From an uncultured Bifidobacteriaceae bacterium (GTDB lineage: Bacteria; Verrucomicrobiota; Verrucomicrobiia; Limisphaerales; JADLHS01): 41,395 nt of DNA. The stretch covers positions 23,658-65,052 of the forward strand of contig CAZNOE010000001.1 in NCBI GenBank assembly GCA_964574525.1, given 5' to 3'. Position 1 is the first letter of the stretch. Every line of letters begins with the position of its first letter. Position numbers and translations under genes: made by a program. The notes under the pieces were generated by a model that worked only from the letters and a program-made list of their open reading frames with translations, did no database searches and had not been told where the DNA came from. Below, in pieces: positions 11,361 through 21,369 of this stretch.

Positions 11361-12377
11361 ATGCGGCAAGAGCTTGTGGAACTTAGACACCTTCGATACT
11401 TCATTGGCATCGCTGAAGATTTGAGCTTCAGCCGTGCTGCCGAGCGATTGCACGTCGCGCAGTCCGCGTTGAGCCGCCAAATCCAGGATTTGGAGGACGA
11501 GCTGAAGGTAAAACTGTTCAAGCGGGATAAGCGAGGTGTCTCTCTCAGCGCGGCGGGCGAGGTTTTCCTGGACAAAGCGCGAAAGCTCGTCTCGGCGAGC
11601 CAGCAGGCGATTGAATCGGCCCGCAGCGCGGCGCGCGGAGAACTGGGCCAGCTTGAGATCGCTTACATCGGCGCGCTATCCGACGGATTGGTTCCGCGGC
11701 TCCTTCGGCGTTTCCGAACGAAATTTCCTCATGTTCACATGAGACTGCGCGCGTTGCGTCCCTGGCAGCAGGCGGAAGCCTTGTTGGAAAACGACTTGAA
11801 CCTCGGCTTCATTGGCCTGCCGATGCCCGACTTGAGTCCACGCCTTAACTTCGAGGTGTTCCGCCGCGACCGCATGGTGGTCGCTCTTCCCATCGGTCAT
11901 CCACTGCTGGGCCGGCGCGTCTTGCGGTTGATTGATCTGGGGACGGAACCATTTATCTTCCTCACCCGGGCGGGAACACCGGTCTATTATGACTGGCTCA
12001 TGCATCTTTGCCATGACGCCGGCTTTCATCCCAACGTGGTACAGGAAGTGGAGAGTGGACAAACCGCGGTGGAGCTTGTGGCGGCCGGTTCGGGGGTCGC
12101 ACTGTTCCCGGCGACGGCCCAACAGCAGCTCCACGGTGACATGAGCTTTCACGCGCTCGCCGGACTTCCCCAGTTCGAGTTTGCGGTTGCTTGGAGGAAA
12201 GATGACGATTCGCCGGTGTTGAAAGCTTTTCTCGAACTCTTTCGCCACGAACTGCGCCTGCCCGGCGTCGCTACCGAAGCCTTGCCCGCTTCGCTCCCAA
12301 TTGAACACTCCGCTCGCCTGGCGCCGCTGAAAAATCCTGCTCCAAACAAGCTGCACGTTCTCCCACGGGCAATTTGA
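11361..12377 (+). CDS. LysR-family transcriptional regulator (true start may be GTG 11376)
   Basis: ELRHLRYF...SFSRAAERLHVAQSALSRQIQDLE HTH followed by a substrate-binding domain. Confidence 0.95.
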   Translation: MRQELVELRHLRYFIGIAEDLSFSRAAERLHVAQSALSRQIQDLEDELKVKLFKRDKRGVSLSAAGEVFLDKARKLVSASQQAIESARSAARGELGQLEIAYIGALSDGLVPRLLRRFRTKFPHVHMRLRALRPWQQAEALLENDLNLGFIGLPMPDLSPRLNFEVFRRDRMVVALPIGHPLLGRRVLRLIDLGTEPFIFLTRAGTPVYYDWLMHLCHDAGFHPNVVQEVESGQTAVELVAAGSGVALFPATAQQQLHGDMSFHALAGLPQFEFAVAWRKDDDSPVLKAFLELFRHELRLPGVATEALPASLPIEHSARLAPLKNPAPNKLHVLPRAI

Positions 12378-12501
12378 TTTTGTTGCTCGAGAGTCGCAAC
12401 TTCACACCGCAAGCGGGGAACCCCTGCGAAGTCGGCTTCGCGATCGGAGACCGTCTATCCACCAATTTGGAATGCCCCCAAGGAATCGTCGTAATACCCT
12501 A

Positions 12502-14142
12502 ACCCGGCGTAGCCGGAACCAAGAGTTTCTGGTAAATCGGGTGGCATGAGTGAACCGACACCTGCTCCCGCCGACACGCCTCAAGTCCAACTGCTGACGC
12601 AACGCTACGCCGACCACATCGCCGGCACGCTGGGCTGTTGGGATCGCGTCATCCTCACCGGCACGCTCACCGATGTCTGTCATGCCGGCGCCGTGGAGGG
12701 CTGGTTGCGCCGGGATAATATCCGCTGCTTCGATCTGAAGGTGTTCGCCGAGCCGCTGCGCGATGCGGTGCGCGATCACGCGATCCTCACGGCGCGGGCC
12801 GCCGGTTTGAGCATCGAATACATTGAGCGCAAAAACTTCCGCAAGGAGGATCGTGTGGCCGACGTGCTGCAACAGCGCGGCGACGCGCCGGGTTTGGTGC
12901 AGGTGTTCTCGGCCATGGAAGCCTGTCAGGCCTTCAAACCCTGGCATGACAAAACCACGGGCAAGACCGGCCTGCGTCCCACCGCCGGCAAATGTCTGCA
13001 CTACTACTTTTATTTCCTGCATCCGCGGCTGGGGTTGGTGTATGTGCGCGTGCCCACCTGGCTGCCCTTCCGGCTGCAAATCTATTTCAACGGTCACAAC
13101 TGGCTGGCCAGCCGGCTGCGACGCGCCGGACTGAAGTTTCAAATGGCAGACAACGCGCTGGTCGAGTGCGCCGATTGGAAAAAAGCCCAGGCGCTGGCCG
13201 ATGATTTTTCGCTCGATCAACTCAAGCGCGACCTGGACGGACTGGCCCGCCAGTGCGTGCCGGCCTTGCTGGAGCGTTTCCGGGGCGGCTATCACTGGAG
13301 CCTGATGCAGGTGGAGTATTCGTTGGACCTGGTGTGGCGTTCGGCCGAGAACCTCGCGCCGGTCTATGAAGAGTTGAGCCGGCAAGCCATCTTCACCGTC
13401 AAAGCGCCGGAAGTCGCCAAATTCCTGGGCAAACGTTTTCCGGCGAACACCGACACCGCGCTGGGCAGCGATTTTCACACGCGCGTGGAGGGCACGCGCA
13501 TCAAACACTTTCTGGGACCGGCCTCGCTCAAGCTCTACGACAAGCGCGGGCGGGTGCTGCGCCTGGAATGCACGGTCAACGACGTGACCTTTTTTTCGCA
13601 CCACCGCAAGGTGGAACATCGGGACGGGCCGCCGACCTACGAAGTGGCGCCGCTCAAGAAAAGCATCTTCAGCCTGCGCGATCTGCGCGGGCTGATGCAC
13701 GCGGCCTGCGCGCGGTATCTGGCGTGGTTGAGCCGGCTGGAAGACCGCTCCTCGGGCCAGGTGGACCTGGACAAACTCAGCCGCCCGGCCAAGGACGCGG
13801 CGGCGCGGAGTTGGCGCGGGTTCAATCTGTTTCTGAGCGCGGACCTGCAAGGCATTCTGGCGGTGCTGGCGGGCCAACATCAGATCAGCGGCCTGACCAG
13901 CCGGCGGCTGCAGCGGCTTTTGCCGCGATGGACGCGCAGCCAGATCGGGCGACTGCTGCGGAGATTGCGTTTGCATGGGCTGATCAAGAAAGTGGGCAAG
14001 ACCTACAAATATTACGCGACGAGTTTCGGTCAGCGCCTCCTGCTGGCGGGCTTGAAGCTCAAAGAACACCTGCTGCTGCCGACGTTGGCTGCCGCCTGAA
14101 AATGTTGCGCACTTTGCATGACATTTTTTCATAAAGGGACTA
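12502..14142 (+). mobile_element. Putative insertion element 1 (non-TIR, Rep-like transposase)
   Basis: Begins after CTA (12499-12501) with a CCGGC-GTA-GCCGG hairpin; single ORF; ends with hairpin 14099-14127 plus GGACTA 14137-14142. Boundaries are inferred. Confidence 0.68.
12546..14099 (+). CDS. Putative transposase with Rep_trans-like motifs and C-terminal winged HTH
   Basis: QVEYSLD, SLKLYDKRGRVLRLECTVND, KCLHYYFY and C-terminal RLRLHGLIKKVGKTYKYY. Confidence 0.75.
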   Translation: MSEPTPAPADTPQVQLLTQRYADHIAGTLGCWDRVILTGTLTDVCHAGAVEGWLRRDNIRCFDLKVFAEPLRDAVRDHAILTARAAGLSIEYIERKNFRKEDRVADVLQQRGDAPGLVQVFSAMEACQAFKPWHDKTTGKTGLRPTAGKCLHYYFYFLHPRLGLVYVRVPTWLPFRLQIYFNGHNWLASRLRRAGLKFQMADNALVECADWKKAQALADDFSLDQLKRDLDGLARQCVPALLERFRGGYHWSLMQVEYSLDLVWRSAENLAPVYEELSRQAIFTVKAPEVAKFLGKRFPANTDTALGSDFHTRVEGTRIKHFLGPASLKLYDKRGRVLRLECTVNDVTFFSHHRKVEHRDGPPTYEVAPLKKSIFSLRDLRGLMHAACARYLAWLSRLEDRSSGQVDLDKLSRPAKDAAARSWRGFNLFLSADLQGILAVLAGQHQISGLTSRRLQRLLPRWTRSQIGRLLRRLRLHGLIKKVGKTYKYYATSFGQRLLLAGLKLKEHLLLPTLAAA

Positions 14143-14144
14143 CG

Positions 14145-14192
14145 CCTTTTCCCAGACTGGCGCTGGGAAAAGGAGATTCGCCGCTGGCGAAT
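14145..14192. repeat. Two tandem perfect inverted repeats
   Basis: CCTTTTCCCAG-N7-CTGGGAAAAGG (14145-14173) and ATTCGCC-GCT-GGCGAAT (14176-14192). Confidence 0.9.
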
Positions 14193-14234
14193 AGCAGGTG
14201 AAATCATTGGCCGTACTGGGTTACACTTCCGGGT

Positions 14235-15893
14235 ATGAATCCCACCGATGATCTGTCCTGTTATTACGCGGAACTGCTGGAAGGCACCTACGATTGTGTC
14301 GATCGCGTCGTCCTCAATGCCTATTTCCCGATGGGGCAGACTGGCGGCGGGTTGCGAACCTGGTGGCGGCAACTCCACGGTAGCGACGCCAGCCTGGATG
14401 ACGCCCATCTGCGCGAGATGGCCGGAGCCTTTTCCCGCCGCCTCACCGCCTACTGCGCCAAACAACAGGTGCCCCTCATCGAAGCCCAAGCCGGCGAGCG
14501 CAAGCATGAGCTGGCCGAGCCCTATCTGCCCAAGGATCCGAAGTTTCGCGGTTTGTTTATGGTGCTCACTGGCAAGGCTCCGGCGCCGGTGTGGGAAGTC
14601 AAACGCAACCCCCAGAATCAAATCATCGAAGTGCAACATCGCCGCCAGTGGCCCTACGTGAAGCACTATTATTTTCATCTGATGGACGCGGAGTGGGGGC
14701 ATGTGACGATCCGCATGTGCGGTTATCCGCCTTTTGGAGCGCAGGTGATTCTCAACGGGCACGAGTGGGTCGAGCGTCAAGCCCGCCGGCAACGGGTCGT
14801 CGCCGTCAAGGCGGGCAACTGTTTTGTGGAAGGCAGCGACTTTGGTGAGCTCAACCGGTTGGGGGCGCTGTTGCAGCGCGCTTCGGCCATTGGCCGATTG
14901 CGGGCCGTCTGCGAGCGTTGGATTTATTCGAGCGCCCTCTGCTTCGGGCTGACGCGGGCTGAACAGCAGCGCAGCCGTTTCGCGTATGCGTTTTCGGTGT
15001 TCCAAATGGAATTAAGCCGCAATCTGCTCTTCCAGCGCGGCACGACCCTGGACGAGGTGTATCAGAAGCTCATCGACCGGACGCGCGTGCGTCTGGATCT
15101 GGAGCAGTTGAAGACCATCTTCGGTTTCCGGCATCGCCCGCACGTCAAAGCAAAGCGGGGACGCACGGAGCCGGAGGTGGTCAAGGCGGTGCAGACGCAT
15201 GGCTACGACCTGACGGTCTTCAAGGTGCAATGGGGCCACCTCACCCTGAAGATTTACGACAAAGGCGGGCGAGTGCTACGGGTGGAGGTGGTGGCGCACA
15301 ACGCCAAGGATCTGCGCTGCGGCAAAGTGTTGGAGAAACTGCCGGTCTTGCTGGAGCGCATGAGCGGCATGCTGGTGCGGTTTTTGAACACGGTGCAGGT
15401 GGCGCACGTGAGCTTCCTGGATCAGGGTGCCTTTGAGCGTTGGGCCGAACCGAGCACGCGAGGCACGCGACGATTGGCGGGCATGGATTTGAATAAAGCC
15501 CGCAACCGACACGCGGTCGACGCCGTGGTGGGACTGGCCACCCAACCCGAGGGCTTCACGTTGGGAGAACTGGCTCAGGCGGTGCGCTCCCGCAGCGGGT
15601 GGAGTCAAAGGAAGTATTCCGTCCGACAAGCGGCTTACGATCTGGCCAAATTGCGCGGCAAGAAACTGGTCAAGCGCCGGGACAAATCGCGGCGTTATCT
15701 CAGCGAGCCCAGCGGCGTGCGGACGCTCTGCGCGTACCTGCTCTTGCGCGAGCAGGTGATTAAACCACTGCTGGCGGGCGTCAATCATCGGCTGGGACGG
15801 CCACCTAAAATCGTCGCGCCCTTGGATCAACATTACCTCAACCTGCGCCAAGAAATGAACCGAACCTTTGAAACCCTTGGCTTGGCGGCCTGA
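14235..15893 (+). CDS. Putative transposase with Rep_trans-like motifs and C-terminal winged HTH, paralog of 12546-14099
   Basis: CVDRVVL, KHYYFH, NGHEW, QMELSRN, TLKIYDKGGRVLRVE and YDLAKLRGKKLVKR. Confidence 0.75.
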   Translation: MNPTDDLSCYYAELLEGTYDCVDRVVLNAYFPMGQTGGGLRTWWRQLHGSDASLDDAHLREMAGAFSRRLTAYCAKQQVPLIEAQAGERKHELAEPYLPKDPKFRGLFMVLTGKAPAPVWEVKRNPQNQIIEVQHRRQWPYVKHYYFHLMDAEWGHVTIRMCGYPPFGAQVILNGHEWVERQARRQRVVAVKAGNCFVEGSDFGELNRLGALLQRASAIGRLRAVCERWIYSSALCFGLTRAEQQRSRFAYAFSVFQMELSRNLLFQRGTTLDEVYQKLIDRTRVRLDLEQLKTIFGFRHRPHVKAKRGRTEPEVVKAVQTHGYDLTVFKVQWGHLTLKIYDKGGRVLRVEVVAHNAKDLRCGKVLEKLPVLLERMSGMLVRFLNTVQVAHVSFLDQGAFERWAEPSTRGTRRLAGMDLNKARNRHAVDAVVGLATQPEGFTLGELAQAVRSRSGWSQRKYSVRQAAYDLAKLRGKKLVKRRDKSRRYLSEPSGVRTLCAYLLLREQVIKPLLAGVNHRLGRPPKIVAPLDQHYLNLRQEMNRTFETLGLAA

Positions 15894-16086
15894 ACGCTCC
15901 GCCACACATCGACAACTTGTTGTCTCCTGTTCTTGGACTAATTGCGTTGGACGAAAGCCACAGTTTACCGCAAAGATTCACCAGTTCGTGATCAACGTTC
16001 TTCCAACCCGGCTCCTTCAAGGCGATCCAGATCAGCCATCAGCTCGCCGGCCGTTTGCGGACCCGCCATGCTCAAGGTCTGGCGTC

Positions 16087-19000
16087 GTGGTTCGAAACAA
16101 AACTCGGAATAGCTGGCTAGCCGACGTTCGGTTTCTTTTTGCGTGCTCGGGCTTGTGGGTCGTGGCGATGGCGGAAGTTTCATGCCTAGCTCAACTTCCT
16201 ACAGCACGCGACACGAACATTGCAGCACTCTGGCTCTTTGATGAAACCAATTACACCTGCACGCCGTTGTTGGATGCCAGCCCGAACCAGAGCGATCTGC
16301 GGCTGCTGGGCGCGGGACAACTGACCGCCGGCAGGTATGGCAACTGTCTGCGCCTGCTGCCGGGAACCGACTTTCACGCGTACTACTCCGAGTGGGACGG
16401 CTCGGTTGTGCCTCGATTCATGGGCCGCGCAGACGGCGGGCCTTCTGGCTTATGGGGTCCGACCATCACACCGGGGCAATTGCTCGCGGCGTTGGCGGGT
16501 CTGGAATGGACCTGCGAGTTCTGGCTGAAACTGGCAGCGATTCCAGGAATCGAAGCTGCGGTTTTGCACCTCGGATACGGATATGACCCGGGCTTCGCAA
16601 TCAACCTGTGTGGAGGCGCTGGTTATTTTTCCCTCACTAACGCCTACGGCGGCTGGGCGGCGGTCTGCCCCATTCAGAACGGCAGCCTGACCAACGGCGG
16701 TTGGCATCACGTCGCATTCACGCTGTCGGCGACTGGAGACCGGGTGAAACTTTACCTCGATGGACAACTTCAAAACGGGAGTACGCGCTCAGCCATTCCT
16801 CTGCAGCCGGTGCCCCCAACCGTTTATCCAGCTTCCCTCGCGACAAGCCACGGTGTGTTCGACAATACGCTGAACTACGAGTTGTTCCGCCAGAACCGAT
16901 TCAATCTGTCTCTGGGTGAGGATCGGCATGGACTTTCTGACTTGGACGGATACCTGGATGAGTTGCGAATTTCTTCCCTCGTCCGCTACCAGGGCAACTT
17001 CGCCCTGCCCGGCAGCTTCTCACGAAACTATGGCTCCAACCCGCCGCCGCTCGCCGTCGTCACCGGTCCGCCGCTCTTATTCGGGACGGGCGCGCCAACG
17101 GGAACAGTGCAGCTCGGCGCGCGGCGGCACCTGTTCATTGACGGAGCGCTGCTCGATGTCACGAACAACGTTCGCTGGACGGTCAACACGCCGCGGGTGG
17201 ATGTCATGAGCCAGATTTTCAGCGGCGACAACAGCGCCGTGGATCACGCTGGCGACGTGTGGCTGGTGACACCCGACAGCTACGAGTCGGACCTTGGACT
17301 GACCAGTTTGTGGGAATCCGGTGACGGCACGAACTTCAGCGCGCCGAATCTGGGCGTGATCAATTACGCAGGCTCGTCGAACAACAACTACATCCTCGAT
17401 TGGACCCCGATGTGGGCCCGAGCGTTCAAGGATCGCAATCCAAACATCCCGACGGACGAGCGCTTCAAAATATCCGCCTGGGTGGCCAACTCAGGCATTC
17501 ATCTTTATACCTCGCCCGATTTGATTCATTGGTCTCGCAACGAAACCATCATGTTGCCGTTGGTCAGTGGCGGCGGCGCGGAAACTTTTTTTGACGACCA
17601 GAACGGGCGTTACCAGTTTTTCATCAAGCGCGACCCGAACATGAACACCGCGGGTTGCGCGACAGCCGCCGGGCGACTGGGCGTGGGGTTTACAACTCGA
17701 GCGGTCAGCAAGCCCTGGCCGTTCCAGCCGATGCCTTCTCCGGGTTTCGCGGGCTGGGCCTCCCCGGCCGTCACCTGTGAAGGCCCGATTGTGTTTGGCG
17801 TTAACACTTATGGGGAAGTGTATCGAACGCGGACGATCAAATACGAGTGGGCGCCGGACGCCTACTTTGCATTTCTTTGGCGCTTCACCACTGCCACCCA
17901 GGTGCGGCAAACCGAGTTGGCCATCAGCCGCGACGGCGTCAATTGGAGCGGCTTGGCGCCACTGGGCATGTATTTGCCGACCGGCCTGAACGTCGGCGGA
18001 GTGACGATGGTCGAGGGGCTTTGTCAGCAAGGGCTGATTCGCCGTGGAAATGTCATCTGGCAATACGCAGAATTTAACTCCGGCCCGCACGGCAATGGCG
18101 CACAAAAACGCAACGGCCGCCTGGTGCAACGCCTGGATGGATTTGTCTCACTCGACACGACCAACACCACCGGAGTCGCCAGAACGCGACCGCTGGTTTT
18201 CGCCGGCAGCTTCCTCACACTGAACCTCGACGCGCGCAACGGCGTCACCCGCGTGGCTCTGCTGAACGAATTGGGCGCACCGCTGCCAGGCTACGATCTG
18301 GCCGATTGCGACCCGATCACAACTGACTCCATCAACCATATCGTCACCTGGCATGGCAGTTCATCATTGTCCAACCTCGCTGGCAGCACCGTGCGCCTCA
18401 AGCTCGAGATGACCCGTACCAAATTGTACGCGCTGCAATTTGGACAACCCGGACCGGTCGTCGTGGATTCCGCTGAAAACTGGAACGGACTTGAGAACCC
18501 GCACGCAGTGGATGGCGTGACGTTGACCGGCGCGGGAACACCGGCGAACCCGTACGTCTATGCTCTGCCCGCCGGCATGACCATCACCGCCAACGGCGTA
18601 GTGCGACTCAGCTCGGACTTGGCGGCCAGCAACACCAGCGAAGACACGACGATCCGATTCTTCTTTGCCGGGGGCAACCTGCAGATGGATGCGGGAGCGA
18701 TCATTGATGTCACCCGGCCAACCCGGAGCGGCCAGCGCGATTTCCTGCTCGACTTGAACGGCGGCGACATGACGGGATCGGGGCGCATCGTCGGCCTGCG
18801 CGGACCCGGCAACAACCGCGCTCAGAAGCCTCGGAACATTTCAATCACGAACGTCCGTGACGTCAACCTGCTGGACTCGGATCTTCACACCGAGAATTCC
18901 GCGGATGCTCTCTCCGGGATCAGTATCGTCGCTCGCGGGAAGGTTGCGATTCAAGGCAAGCTCGACACCAGCGACCTCAGCACTGGTGGAAACGCCGCCG

Positions 19001-21369
19001 GCAACATCGTGGTCTTCGGCGAACAAGTGCAAGTCAACAACCTCGACACGCGCGCCTTCCGCGCGGACGGCCAGGCCGCGAACGGGTACGTTGACCTGCG
19101 TGCGCTCGACGCCAATGCCGGGTACGATACGACCAGTGCCGCCAACGCGTTTACGAACCGGCTTGTCCTCAATGGCAGCCTGCGACTGGCCGGCCTCGGG
19201 CCAAATCTCACCAGCATCGTCCGGCTCTACGGTGTGGTCGTCCAACTCAACGGCGGCTACTCGCTGGCACTGCCGGGCAACGGCCTCATTTCTTTTCGTG
19301 CCGGCGTACCCAACTTGGGAACGCCACCAGACGATTTGTTCATCAACGCTTCGTCGCAAAATCCGCCGGTCGGCCACGTCGTCAATTGGGATGGCGTGCC
19401 TCCGGCCAGCACCGGTCCCAGTTTCACGACCAACCCAATTGTCCTCAGTTCAGCTTTGGCTGGGCTTGCCTACAGCAACTCCATCGCCAGCCTGGCCACC
19501 GATCCCGACGGCAATCCGCTCGCTTACGCCAAAGGCTCCGGGCCTGCCTGGCTTCTGGTTGCGCTCGACGGCACGCTTTCCGGCACGCCGACTCTCGCTG
19601 ATGTCGGGACCAACACGTGGCTGGTTTCGGTTACCGATGGATCGCGCTCCGCGTTGGCCACGTTGAAGATCAAGGTCGGCTCCAAGCCGATTTTCACCGC
19701 AAGCCCGATCGTCAAAGCGGCTGCATCGCAAGGCATGCCTTACGCCGGCACGCTCGCGAATGTCACTTACGACCCGGATGGAGATACGCTGACCTTCGCG
19801 AAGGAGAGCGGATCTGGCTGGCTGACGGTCGCCGCGGACGGCGCTCTGTCGGGAACCCCGAATGGCTCCGACACTTTCACGAACTTGTGGATCGTCTCGG
19901 CAACGGATGGGTCTTCCTCGAATGCAGCCATGCTGCTGATCAACGTGTGCGGCGAACCGAAGTTCTTCGTGGATCCCGTCGCAAAAGAAGATGCCTGGGC
20001 CAGTAACAACTACGCCATCGCCGGTCAGACGCTTGCGAGCAGCGTCGCTGACCCTTGCGGTCAACCGTTGACCTTCGCCAAGGCTGGCGGGCCGTCGTGG
20101 TTGAGTGTTTCGCCGGATGGCTCCTTGTCCGGAACTCCAGCCAATGGAGATGCGGGCCTTAACACCTGGACCGTTACCGCCAACGATGGGACTTACACGG
20201 CGACTGGCGCGCTGCGCATTCTGGTGCATTCTGCTGCCACGAACATCGTGATTTCCACGGTCGAACAATGGGATGGCGTGCAGAACCCACATGCTGCAGA
20301 CGGAGTCACGTTAAGCGGATCTGGCACGGACGCGGACCCGGCGGTTTATACGATGGCCGCAAACATACGCATCACCTCGACGGGCGGGATTTCGATTAGC
20401 GCGCGCCCGCCGGCCGGCGGTCAGGACCAGCCGCCGGACAACACGGTGATGCTGAGGTTTCTTTCGGGCAACCTGCAGATGGACAATGGCGCCTTCATCA
20501 ATATCGCCCGTCGAAGTCGCAGCGGTGTCCGGCACGCGATCTTGAGCATGGGCCGCGGCAATATTACCGGCGCGGGCCGGATCAATGGACTTTGGGACAT
20601 CGTGTCCACCCCGCGAATCTTGACGATCAACGATGTCCATGACGTGAGCCTTAGCGGCATTGATCTGCATGTCGAGAATGTCAACAACAGCGGACGGCAC
20701 CTCACCATCACGGCTAGCGGCAAAGTTTCGATTTCGACGATTGATAACAGCGACCGCGATCTGATGGGCAACGACGCCGGAGATGTGAACATCAACGCCG
20801 AGGCGATCCTGGTCGGGGGGATCAATGTCGCTGCCTATCGGGCGGACGGAGTGGCCAAGAATGGAGATATTCGCTTGTCCGCCCTTGCGTCGCCGCTCTA
20901 TGACCTCACGGCGGCCGCGGCCAACACCGCGCAGAATCGCTTGGTCTTGACCGGTCTCGTATTCACCGCTGGAACGTCCACCAATCGGCCCGGCAATGTG
21001 ACGCTGGCCGGCGTCATCGTCGAAACCAAACCGGGCTTCCAATTGCAGATGCCGCCGACCGGCGCGCTGACGCTTAACGCCGGCATGTATCCCAACGGCG
21101 TCGGCGCCAAGGCAACCGACATGTTCATTGACCGGGCCGGCAGCGGGCTGACGCCAGCTTACATTGTGCAATGGTCCGGTCAGTTGTATCCGCGCCTGAC
21201 CATCACGCACAGCGGCACCAACGTTGTCCTGCAGTGGAATGTTGATGACTACACCTTGCAGGAGAATTCCACTCTGACGAATCCGCTTGGCTGGACCAAC
21301 CTGCCGGACCTCAGCCCGGCAACGCGCCCGGTTGGGTCCAATTCCGGATACTACCGATTGAAAAGGTAG
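16087..21369 (+). CDS. Giant secreted multidomain protein: LamG-like, GH32/43-like beta-propeller, beta-helix-like domain, 3 Ig-like repeats, beta-helix-like domain, C-terminal YRL-type domain
   Basis: WHHVAFT...LYLDG...LDELRIS (LamG); LFIDG...SRDGVNW...RLDGFVSL (propeller family); DPDG..L.F.K..GP.WL.V..DG.LSGTP three times. Start placed at GTG 16087 because the ORF-track start lies inside element 2. Confidence 0.85.
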   Translation: MVRNKTRNSWLADVRFLFACSGLWVVAMAEVSCLAQLPTARDTNIAALWLFDETNYTCTPLLDASPNQSDLRLLGAGQLTAGRYGNCLRLLPGTDFHAYYSEWDGSVVPRFMGRADGGPSGLWGPTITPGQLLAALAGLEWTCEFWLKLAAIPGIEAAVLHLGYGYDPGFAINLCGGAGYFSLTNAYGGWAAVCPIQNGSLTNGGWHHVAFTLSATGDRVKLYLDGQLQNGSTRSAIPLQPVPPTVYPASLATSHGVFDNTLNYELFRQNRFNLSLGEDRHGLSDLDGYLDELRISSLVRYQGNFALPGSFSRNYGSNPPPLAVVTGPPLLFGTGAPTGTVQLGARRHLFIDGALLDVTNNVRWTVNTPRVDVMSQIFSGDNSAVDHAGDVWLVTPDSYESDLGLTSLWESGDGTNFSAPNLGVINYAGSSNNNYILDWTPMWARAFKDRNPNIPTDERFKISAWVANSGIHLYTSPDLIHWSRNETIMLPLVSGGGAETFFDDQNGRYQFFIKRDPNMNTAGCATAAGRLGVGFTTRAVSKPWPFQPMPSPGFAGWASPAVTCEGPIVFGVNTYGEVYRTRTIKYEWAPDAYFAFLWRFTTATQVRQTELAISRDGVNWSGLAPLGMYLPTGLNVGGVTMVEGLCQQGLIRRGNVIWQYAEFNSGPHGNGAQKRNGRLVQRLDGFVSLDTTNTTGVARTRPLVFAGSFLTLNLDARNGVTRVALLNELGAPLPGYDLADCDPITTDSINHIVTWHGSSSLSNLAGSTVRLKLEMTRTKLYALQFGQPGPVVVDSAENWNGLENPHAVDGVTLTGAGTPANPYVYALPAGMTITANGVVRLSSDLAASNTSEDTTIRFFFAGGNLQMDAGAIIDVTRPTRSGQRDFLLDLNGGDMTGSGRIVGLRGPGNNRAQKPRNISITNVRDVNLLDSDLHTENSADALSGISIVARGKVAIQGKLDTSDLSTGGNAAGNIVVFGEQVQVNNLDTRAFRADGQAANGYVDLRALDANAGYDTTSAANAFTNRLVLNGSLRLAGLGPNLTSIVRLYGVVVQLNGGYSLALPGNGLISFRAGVPNLGTPPDDLFINASSQNPPVGHVVNWDGVPPASTGPSFTTNPIVLSSALAGLAYSNSIASLATDPDGNPLAYAKGSGPAWLLVALDGTLSGTPTLADVGTNTWLVSVTDGSRSALATLKIKVGSKPIFTASPIVKAAASQGMPYAGTLANVTYDPDGDTLTFAKESGSGWLTVAADGALSGTPNGSDTFTNLWIVSATDGSSSNAAMLLINVCGEPKFFVDPVAKEDAWASNNYAIAGQTLASSVADPCGQPLTFAKAGGPSWLSVSPDGSLSGTPANGDAGLNTWTVTANDGTYTATGALRILVHSAATNIVISTVEQWDGVQNPHAADGVTLSGSGTDADPAVYTMAANIRITSTGGISISARPPAGGQDQPPDNTVMLRFLSGNLQMDNGAFINIARRSRSGVRHAILSMGRGNITGAGRINGLWDIVSTPRILTINDVHDVSLSGIDLHVENVNNSGRHLTITASGKVSISTIDNSDRDLMGNDAGDVNINAEAILVGGINVAAYRADGVAKNGDIRLSALASPLYDLTAAAANTAQNRLVLTGLVFTAGTSTNRPGNVTLAGVIVETKPGFQLQMPPTGALTLNAGMYPNGVGAKATDMFIDRAGSGLTPAYIVQWSGQLYPRLTITHSGTNVVLQWNVDDYTLQENSTLTNPLGWTNLPDLSPATRPVGSNSGYYRLKR

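Follow-up and report, generated by a model that had tools for sequence, protein, structure and literature searches.

The window analysed here is a 41,395-nucleotide stretch of DNA from an uncultured bacterium placed by GTDB in the Verrucomicrobiota (assembly GCA_964574525.1, contig CAZNOE010000001.1, positions 23,658 to 65,052). It contains two single-gene insertion sequences arranged head to tail, termed elements 1 and 2. Coordinates refer to the window, and all features of the two elements lie on the + strand. Element 1 is 1641 bp in length (12502–14142) and encodes ORF1 (open reading frame 1; 517 aa, 12546–14099), while element 2 is 1798 bp in length (14143–15940) and encodes ORF2 (552 aa, 14235–15893). 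The two proteins are distantly homologous, aligning end to end with 22% identity (E = 7e-21), and the two elements are of one family. They are independent single-gene insertion sequences, and the family is very large and unannotated. In the sequences compared each element is found always directly 3′ of a target CTA, the target of the element 1 subfamily being CCTA|A, where the bar marks the junction. The tandem arose by insertion of element 2 into a target site, the terminus of element 1, and is not a two-gene unit. The best explanation, which we regard as probable though by a limited measure, is that the two CTA-targeting insertion sequences are moved independently by a tyrosine nickase resembling the Rep_trans replication initiators.

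Copies and termini of element 1

Element 1 occurs alone, as a 90% copy in the genome of another genus (G015:C50), where it is bounded by ...CCTA|ACCCGG on the left and GGGACTA|A on the right. The genome from which the window derives (1278 contigs, 82% complete) also carries a 253-bp miniature derivative with the same ends. Three copies of this are complete (G000 C128:7533-7785, C112:1427-1679 and C341:366-618 (minus strand)), and a further four are cut by contig ends (C1018, C131, C990 and C536). The first 31 bases of the miniature are those of the left end of element 1 and the last ~44 resemble its right end, with an unrelated interior. Both ends are all that is retained, and the cis-acting sequences are thereby bounded. 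The miniature copies finish at the same right terminus as element 1, with A as the next base. Independent copies end exactly where a preliminary description of this DNA, made from its sequence alone, had placed the termini, and the hairpins, spacers, GGACTA and CTA junction motifs that it listed are all present at the positions given.

On the left the junction lies within CCCTAA (12497–12502). The target motif CCTA (12498–12501) is conserved in the left flanks of relatives, the junction follows 12501, and contigs from other copies depart from the window at 12497/12498. The element begins with ACCCGGC...GCCGGAACCAA, which has one match in the window and includes the hairpin CCGGC-GTA-GCCGG (12504–12516). 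A total of 80 metagenome loci of element 1 relatives were recovered, and the left end ACCCGGC-NNN-GCCGGAACCAA is retained down to 45% protein identity. At 74 distinct sites the junction is preceded by C (74), C (74), T (72) and A (74), and the element itself starts with A at 73. Ahead of CCTA there is a variable base (C 33, T 17, A 19, G 5). In seven left flanks (L031, L059, L066, L078, L089, L093 and L104) one or more additional copies of (C)CTAA precede the junction by a few bases. Earlier insertions may have left these as footprints or remnants, or CTAA-rich sites may be preferred.

The right end carries an imperfect hairpin (14099–14127), formed by AAAATGT (14099–14105) and ACATTTT (14121–14127), and is completed by 9 nt and the terminal GGACTA (14137–14142). 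The family consensus at this terminus is (A/T)AGG(G/T)ACTA. Among 64 distinct right junctions A-G-G-(G/T)-A-C-T-A is nearly invariant, the presence of CTA in 64 of 64 being by construction, since the search pattern required it. The terminus is followed by A at 59 junctions, by T at 4 and by C at 1, beyond which the sequence is random. Exceptions are L096 and L082 that read CTC, L099 that is without the end, and L091 that differs. An element 2-type element stands behind only one of the 64 junctions, that of L040. Alignment of the flanks of other copies gives CCTA|A on the left and AGG(G/T)ACTA on the right.

Terminal inverted repeats longer than 3 bases are absent from element 1, the miniature, element 2 and the relatives. 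When the left end of element 1 (ACCCGGCG...) is compared with its right end in reverse complement, only CCC is shared. The family has the features expected generically of insertion sequences, namely multiple copies whose ends are identical but whose flanks differ, derivatives that are non-autonomous, and a distribution that is patchy.

Element 2 and the tandem arrangement

Element 2 belongs to a second subfamily and is present as a single copy in this assembly. The relatives examined were 12 genome loci, the locus L040, three copies in G179, and two copies on a plasmid of Mycobacterium riyadhense. The boundaries of element 2 agree with L040, L108–L119 and L134/L135, and the contig of a relative in run X4 begins at 14146. 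At the left end relatives start with (C/G)GC and have two hairpins. At the right end they read GACAAC-(A/T)T-GTTG, then 14–16 bases, then TTAGCG(A/C)CTA. In the window the corresponding palindrome is GACAAC-TT-GTTGTC (15911–15924, with arms at 15911–15916 and 15919–15924), followed by 10 nt and the right terminus GGACTA (15935–15940). The original right flank resumes at A15941 (target CCTA|A), and A is usual after the right ends of relatives. The right end in the window (15925–15940) is 7 bases shorter than those of L108 and L113 (74–80% identity; these read GGATTAGCGACTA), where the 7 extra bases lie ahead of the final CTA. A T-to-C change may have created the earlier CTA that now serves as the terminus. 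A similar shift of the right end possibly distinguishes L091 from L079, L085 and L093.

Of the 15 left junctions visible in the element 2 subfamily, 14 have CTA as the last bases of the flank and one (L117) has ACA. The target of the subfamily, T(A/T)AG..(A/T)CTA, is the family's own right-end motif, and this places element 2 exactly at the terminus of element 1, whose GGACTA (14137–14142) is its target. The insertion of element 2 at that terminus, as suggested in the preliminary description, is supported. Nine of 17 element 2-type copies, namely the copy in the window and those of L040, L111, L115, L119, L024, L026, L134 and L109, have a family member immediately ahead of them on the same strand. 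The upstream partners are of different subfamilies, and in L109 the partner is a miniature, which at ~145 bp is shorter than that of 253 bp. Other relatives (L135, L027 and L114) have no partner. The pair is hence not a single two-gene element. The genes of L040 have 63% and 79% identity to those of the window. At one further locus (L092) an element 1-type left end adjoins the right end of another member, the sole junction of this kind in 165 loci.

The finished plasmid of M. riyadhense (NZ_OY970457.1) carries two 96.6%-identical element 2-type copies. The second of these has an in-frame TAG, and a fragment is also present on the plasmid. Locus L134 (NZ_OY970457.1 143332-146752) comprises two family genes in tandem, and the upstream member has a tandemly duplicated hairpin in its right end. 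The annotation of all of these is 'hypothetical protein'.

The CTA at the junctions

The preliminary description offered as an alternative that GGACTA is a 6-bp target duplication. This is not so, since in the element 2 relatives the left flank and right end of one element differ outside CTA, and the left flanks of the two 96.6%-identical plasmid copies share CTA only. Its proposal that CTA is a site of cutting and joining stands in so far as specificity for CTA is found at junctions across the family; cutting and joining there are what we infer.

Five elements have a triplet other than CTA on one side, being CCA on the left of L040 and L047, TTA on the left of L107, and CTC on the right of L096 and L082. 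All five have CTA on the other side, and there is no matched pair of non-CTA triplets among the elements seen. By comparison of these junctions the one-sided mismatches lean against a duplication of CTA.

No clean empty site was found for the window flanks in 40 relatives, for the flanks of the G015 copy in 24 genomes of the same genus, or for three miniature copies in three genomes of the same genus. An apparent empty site at G002:C320 was rejected, having a different gene between the flanks. Joints indicating excision or a circle junction, of either element or both, were absent from four runs, which were available as contigs only and are uninformative either way. The only joints in these runs derive from the miniature element.

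Structure at the ends

The right-end hairpins are not above chance as single sequences. Folding of 14095–14145 gives z = −1.51, with 13 of 200 shuffled sequences as good, and 15894–15945 gives z = +0.38, with 118 of 200 as good. They are taken as real because they are conserved in relatives, and not on the basis of single-sequence folding. In 58 distinct right ends of element 1 relatives there is an imperfect helix of 12 pairs at a constant distance from the end, aligned without gaps from the terminus. RNAalifold predicted no consensus structure for the right ends, and the 12-pair helix was then specified by hand for a test of covariation. Pairing is found in 65% of cells compared with 57% in shuffles, and the covariation score is 0.242 compared with 0.139 in shuffles, of which none in 500 reaches the observed value. 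Slid partners score 0.09–0.11. In element 2 relatives GACAAC-(A/T)T-GTTG is conserved. A scan for promoters and terminators flagged neither right end.

Hairpins are also formed at the left ends, and these (12504–12516, 14145–14173 and 14176–14192) did not appear in the preliminary description. The two at the left end of element 2 are strong (z = −3.26). The first (14145–14173) has an 11-bp stem, with compensatory changes in 9 of 11 pairs among 13 relatives. The second (14176–14192) is ATTCGCC-GCT-GGCGAAT; in relatives the hairpin is kept and the sequence differs. Among 13 sequences, 12 retain ACT in the loop of the first hairpin (14156–14162), whereas the stem is altered throughout; GACT occurs also within the terminal and target motif.

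No Rfam family lies above threshold in the elements. A match to mir-127 inside ORF1 (13655–13753; 24.1 bits against a gathering score of 60, E = 0.023) is taken as chance.

The encoded protein

The AlphaFold model of ORF1 has high confidence (predicted local distance difference test (pLDDT) 94.9, predicted template modelling score (pTM) 0.89). It comprises a sheet-rich domain (residues 25–400) followed by a C-terminal winged helix (residues ~400–517) that has Z ~10 to regulators of the HxlR, MarR and ArsR types. When the whole of ORF1 was compared with the PDB using Foldseek, the matches were RepD/RepDE (4cwe_A, E = 9.8e-4, probability 0.97) and RepSTK1 (4cij, probability 0.93–0.98), followed by TBP. 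Other structure searches with the whole protein gave only winged-helix matches among those listed, and none to a Rep protein. The catalytic domain folded alone (pLDDT 91.1) matches 4cwe_A with probability 0.98 and TBP with probability 1.00 in Foldseek, with no match at E ≤ 0.001. Over the two Foldseek comparisons the probabilities for the Rep proteins are 0.92–0.98.

An aligner independent of Foldseek places the domain closest to TBPs (Z 8.8–7.4; for the top match 179 residues aligned with a root mean square deviation (rmsd) of 3.8). RepDE (4cwc_A) follows at Z 7.2 (174 aligned, rmsd 4.8) and RepSTK1 (4cij_A) at Z 6.9 (186 aligned, rmsd 4.5). The alignments with TBP, RepDE and RepSTK1 cover the whole domain (25–400), and those of lower rank half of it. 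In a library of viral structures the top match to ORF1 is A0A2N9QVX7 (E = 4.9e-6), and A0A345MNV4 is matched with probability 0.99. In the available part of PMC13107129 these are a viral TBP and a Rep_trans protein of the Inoviridae respectively. By these middling scores, the domain is predicted to have the TBP-like catalytic fold of Rep_trans.

A comparison of 68 diverse family members reveals that D33, E257, K329, Y331, R339 and E341 (ORF1 numbering) are invariant, with K333 present in 67 and D261 in 66. In ORF2 D33, E257, K329, Y331, K333, R339 and E341 are all kept. D33 and the motifs QxExAxD (Q255-x-E257-x-A-x-D261), K329-x-Y331-D-K333 and R339-x-E341 lie on predicted strands, with i, i+2 spacing. 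As the Rep_trans active site is described in the portions available of PMC4797284 and PMC5714925, a tyrosine on a strand lies in YxK flanked by R/K, and the metal is coordinated by an N-terminal Asp together with the acidic residues of RxD and RxE. On that description the family residues match the Rep_trans motifs N′ (D), I (RxD..D), III (YxK) and IV (RxE). An alignment of 30 Rep_trans proteins has RIDLCFDD, LRCYDK and IRWEVEF at these places, and the family pattern agrees. From conservation across the family, D33, E257, Y331 and E341 are the candidate active site. No histidine is invariant in the 68 members, the best being H321 (58 of 68). A profile comparison of the family with 19 Y1 transposases (Y1_Tnp) gave a probability of 0.2%, and no Y1_Tnp or Y2_Tnp match in Pfam was found for ORF1, for ORF2 or among the families listed.

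Sequence-based annotation detects little else. Neither ORF has a match to a catalytic domain in Pfam or NCBIfam, and PHROGs gave nothing useful; the sole signal is a weak one for a winged helix at the C terminus. Sequence and profile searches against solved structures (PDB) found winged-helix regulators only. In Pfam 28 of the 68 members match the winged-helix model HVO_A0261_N, and there is no transposase, integrase or Rep family among the matches listed. A stored homologue with 62% identity to ORF1, used to search the Protein Atlas, retrieved only the family's own unnamed clusters.

Extent of the family

At E ≤ 0.001 the family comprises 6213 representatives of clusters at 50% identity. Among the candidates scored there are >5605 (ORF1) and >5850 (ORF2) clusters at 90% identity. 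The proteins are named 'hypothetical' or 'MarR family regulator' in the sources. Many of the genes are on contigs of about the length of the element (1640–1650 bp and ~1800 bp), as repeats are. Within the phylum the distribution is patchy; members occur in 11 of the 401 genomes, commonly in multiple copies, as fragments or as genes with in-frame stops.

Neighbouring genes

The insertion is flanked by an ORF of 338 aa (11361–12377), which by eye resembles a LysR-type regulator, and by a frame of 1833 aa (15868–21369). The listed start of the latter overlaps the end of element 2, and the real start is probably downstream. Genes for Y1_Tnp proteins (of IS200/IS605 or REP-associated type) occur in 39 of 41 related genomes (G000–G040), with ≤21 matches per genome, and one (G015:C50:31163-31501) is near the right flank of the G015 copy of element 1.

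DISCUSSION

Proposed mechanism

The family enzyme is most likely a tyrosine nicking-and-joining enzyme, having the predicted TBP-like fold of the Rep_trans initiators and relaxases fused to a winged helix. In the mechanism that we propose, Tyr331, aided by a metal bound to D33, E257 and E341, would nick one strand after the CTA of the left junction, whereupon the enzyme would be linked to the 5′ end of the element. With a second nick after the CTA of the right end one strand would be released or copied, and its ends would be joined, probably as a circle with the junction ...CTA|A.... The strand would then be transferred into a target nicked after CTA, with no duplication of the target. The left junction, right junction, predicted circle and target would all be CTA|N. 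The right end of any resident element would offer a ready target, and head-to-tail arrays would result. Within this scheme the hairpins could function either in folded single-stranded DNA or as palindromes in the duplex. What the observations establish is that the elements are mobile, where they end, their target specificity, the targeting that produces tandems, and the modelled fold with its conserved residues, whereas the chemistry, a single-stranded intermediate and insertion free of duplication are proposals.

Several observations weigh against this mechanism. The structural similarity is not strong, as the Z scores of 7.2 and 6.9 are below the safe level of the aligner, the Foldseek E values are ~1e-3, and the TM (template modelling) values are 0.2–0.3. 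TBPs, which are not enzymes, outscore the Rep proteins. Comparison of the family with 30 Rep_trans proteins using hhalign gave a probability of 0.56%, and PF02486 has no match in ORF1, in ORF2, in the genome that carries them (0) or among the families listed for the 68 members (E ≤ 1). Neither motif II of Rep_trans nor the E of motif III can be recognised in the family. At the DNA level the right-end helix has no strand asymmetry (38 G-T compared with 53 A-C cells), and the left flank of the G179 relatives (42% identical) is not CTA. A 3-bp duplication of CTA and an insertion after CTA free of duplication yield identical sequence. Finally, the lack of an empty site, circle junction or excision joint is counted against it.

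Other explanations

The proposal of a Rep_trans-like nickase was weighed against four others. The first is site-specific recombination, in which a double-stranded circle with a CTA core is integrated in the manner of IS110 or of a tyrosine integrase, and the hairpins are palindromes to which the winged-helix protein binds as a dimer. The same core is present at both junctions, and the protein contains a winged helix as well as invariant Tyr, Arg and Lys. The lack of strand asymmetry in the right-end helix is as expected for this explanation, and that helix may indeed be a double-stranded palindrome bound by a dimer; L092 provides one right-end to left-end junction. However, there is no integrase, resolvase or DEDD family or fold among the matches. 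In contrast to IS110/IS1111 there is no DEDD/Transposase_20 match, and the guide-RNA systems require at least 100 nt of non-coding sequence, whereas the non-coding ends of element 1 are only 44 + 43 nt, too short for a bridge-type guide RNA. The three carboxylates in a Rep_trans-like pattern would moreover not be needed by a tyrosine recombinase. We consider site-specific recombination unlikely.

A second alternative is a DDE-like, metal-dependent transposase acting by cut-and-paste or copy-and-paste with a 3-bp staggered cut, for which the flanking CTAs would be a duplication. CTA is found on both sides of every clean copy, as a fixed 3-bp duplication would give, and D33, E257 and E341 provide invariant acidic residues. 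The elements differ from the classical DDE insertion sequences in lacking terminal inverted repeats. The five one-sided triplets, each with CTA opposite, argue against it, as does the predicted TBP-like fold; there is no transposase or integrase fold among the matches listed, and no DDE family was found in Pfam for any of the 68 members. We therefore assign this a low probability.

It is similarly improbable that the elements are integrated small rolling-circle replicons resembling plasmids or satellites, in which Rep would mainly replicate an episome and integration would be secondary. A replication-initiator fold would suit such a role, the catalytic domain joined to a MarR-like winged helix is the arrangement of the archaeal Rep-Arvir initiators in what is available of PMC13107129, and many contigs are of about the element length. 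Yet the contigs of ~1643–1650 bp (for example L072) carry a few bases of differing flank and no closed junction, the chromosomal copies are at many sites and are accompanied by miniature derivatives, and 165 loci include just one right-end to left-end junction.

The last, that ORF1 and ORF2 form one two-gene element (12502–15940), is very hard to sustain: the order of an element 1-type gene and then an element 2-type gene recurs in L040 and other tandem pairs, but element 1 is alone in G015 and at 63 of 64 distinct metagenome right junctions, element 2 relatives stand behind different subfamilies, behind a miniature or behind none, and the genes of L040 diverge unequally from those of the window, so that an obligate unit is refuted. 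Occasional co-mobilisation of both elements by read-through of the inner CTA is possible.

Relationship to known systems

Of the systems that move without terminal inverted repeats or target duplication, IS200/IS605 elements (such as IS608) have subterminal imperfect hairpins at both ends and insert 3′ of a short sequence that is kept in the left flank. The present family is alike in having hairpins at both ends and in inserting 3′ of a short left-flank motif. It is unlike them in the size of the protein (~520 aa compared with ~150), in the dissimilarity of the left and right hairpins, and in the negative profile comparison with Y1 transposases. Helitrons have a 3′ subterminal hairpin a short, fixed distance before a CT-containing terminus, with neither inverted repeats nor duplication, and give rise to non-autonomous derivatives. 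The 3′ hairpin before a CTA terminus, the lack of inverted repeats and the non-autonomous derivatives are shared by the family described here, which is however bacterial, 1.6–1.8 kb in length and without a Rep-helicase, has CTA and not A|T as target, and is hairpinned at the left end too.

The available text of PMC5714925 describes IS91/ISCR elements as without inverted repeats or duplication, with two ends that are different and structured, inserting beside a fixed short target that resembles the terminating end, and with one strand thought to move. The present elements are alike in having no inverted repeats, distinct structured ends and a short target resembling the right end. IS91/ISCR use a HUH Y2 transposase, whereas here there is no HUH motif and no Y2_Tnp match, and the predicted fold is TBP-like and not that of HUH/RRM. 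The analogy with Helitrons and IS91 drawn in the preliminary description gains support from the modelled fold, which is that of a rolling-circle initiator, albeit of the Rep_trans and not the HUH type.

Rep_trans itself (PF02486) comprises the pT181-type RepC/RepD, RepSTK1, CTXphi Rep and MOBT relaxases such as NicK. The likeness lies in the TBP-like fold and hairpin-bearing sites, in the strand Tyr within (K/R)xYxK, in the RxE and (R/Q)x(D/E)xAxD strands and in the N-terminal Asp. The family differs in being undetectable as Rep_trans by sequence or profile, in its ~375-residue domain with large helical inserts, and in its C-terminal winged helix; its carrier is a multicopy chromosomal insertion sequence, and not a plasmid, phage or conjugative element. 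Similar in layout is Rep-Arvir (DUF7845) of archaeal viruses and plasmids, which in the accessible part of PMC13107129 has an N-terminal TBP-fold domain, related to Rep_trans by structure only, together with a MarR-like winged helix. As far as that part of the source extends, the two have the same layout and the same matches in the viral library (A0A2N9QVX7 and A0A345MNV4). The present family is bacterial, has KxYDK in place of KHYYM, and forms elements that behave as transposable and not as viral replicons; the Pfam families listed for the 68 members (first 25 of 50) do not include DUF7845.

Significance

No published description of such an element was found in the literature searched; ISfinder and subscription journals were outside its scope, and a prior description is possible. 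In the available parts of PMC5714925 and PMC13107129, the only roles given to Rep_trans enzymes are the replication of plasmids and phages and that of conjugative relaxase, and rolling-circle and single-strand transposons are credited to HUH enzymes only. There is in our judgement an even chance that the family represents another class of prokaryotic transposase in terms of chemistry, a tyrosine nickase-ligase with a Rep_trans-like TBP fold that acts by a rolling-circle or single-strand route, present across phyla as a non-HUH counterpart of IS91, Helitrons and IS200/IS605. With its strict, short target and the target that an element itself makes at its right end, the system is easy to test and could serve as a small site-directed insertion tool. 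If the transposase is indeed Rep_trans-like, it would be a new class of enzyme among the chemistries of transposition, and transposons would be connected with a second lineage of replication initiators. Thousands of 'hypothetical' and 'MarR-family' genes that break metagenome assemblies would then receive a name.

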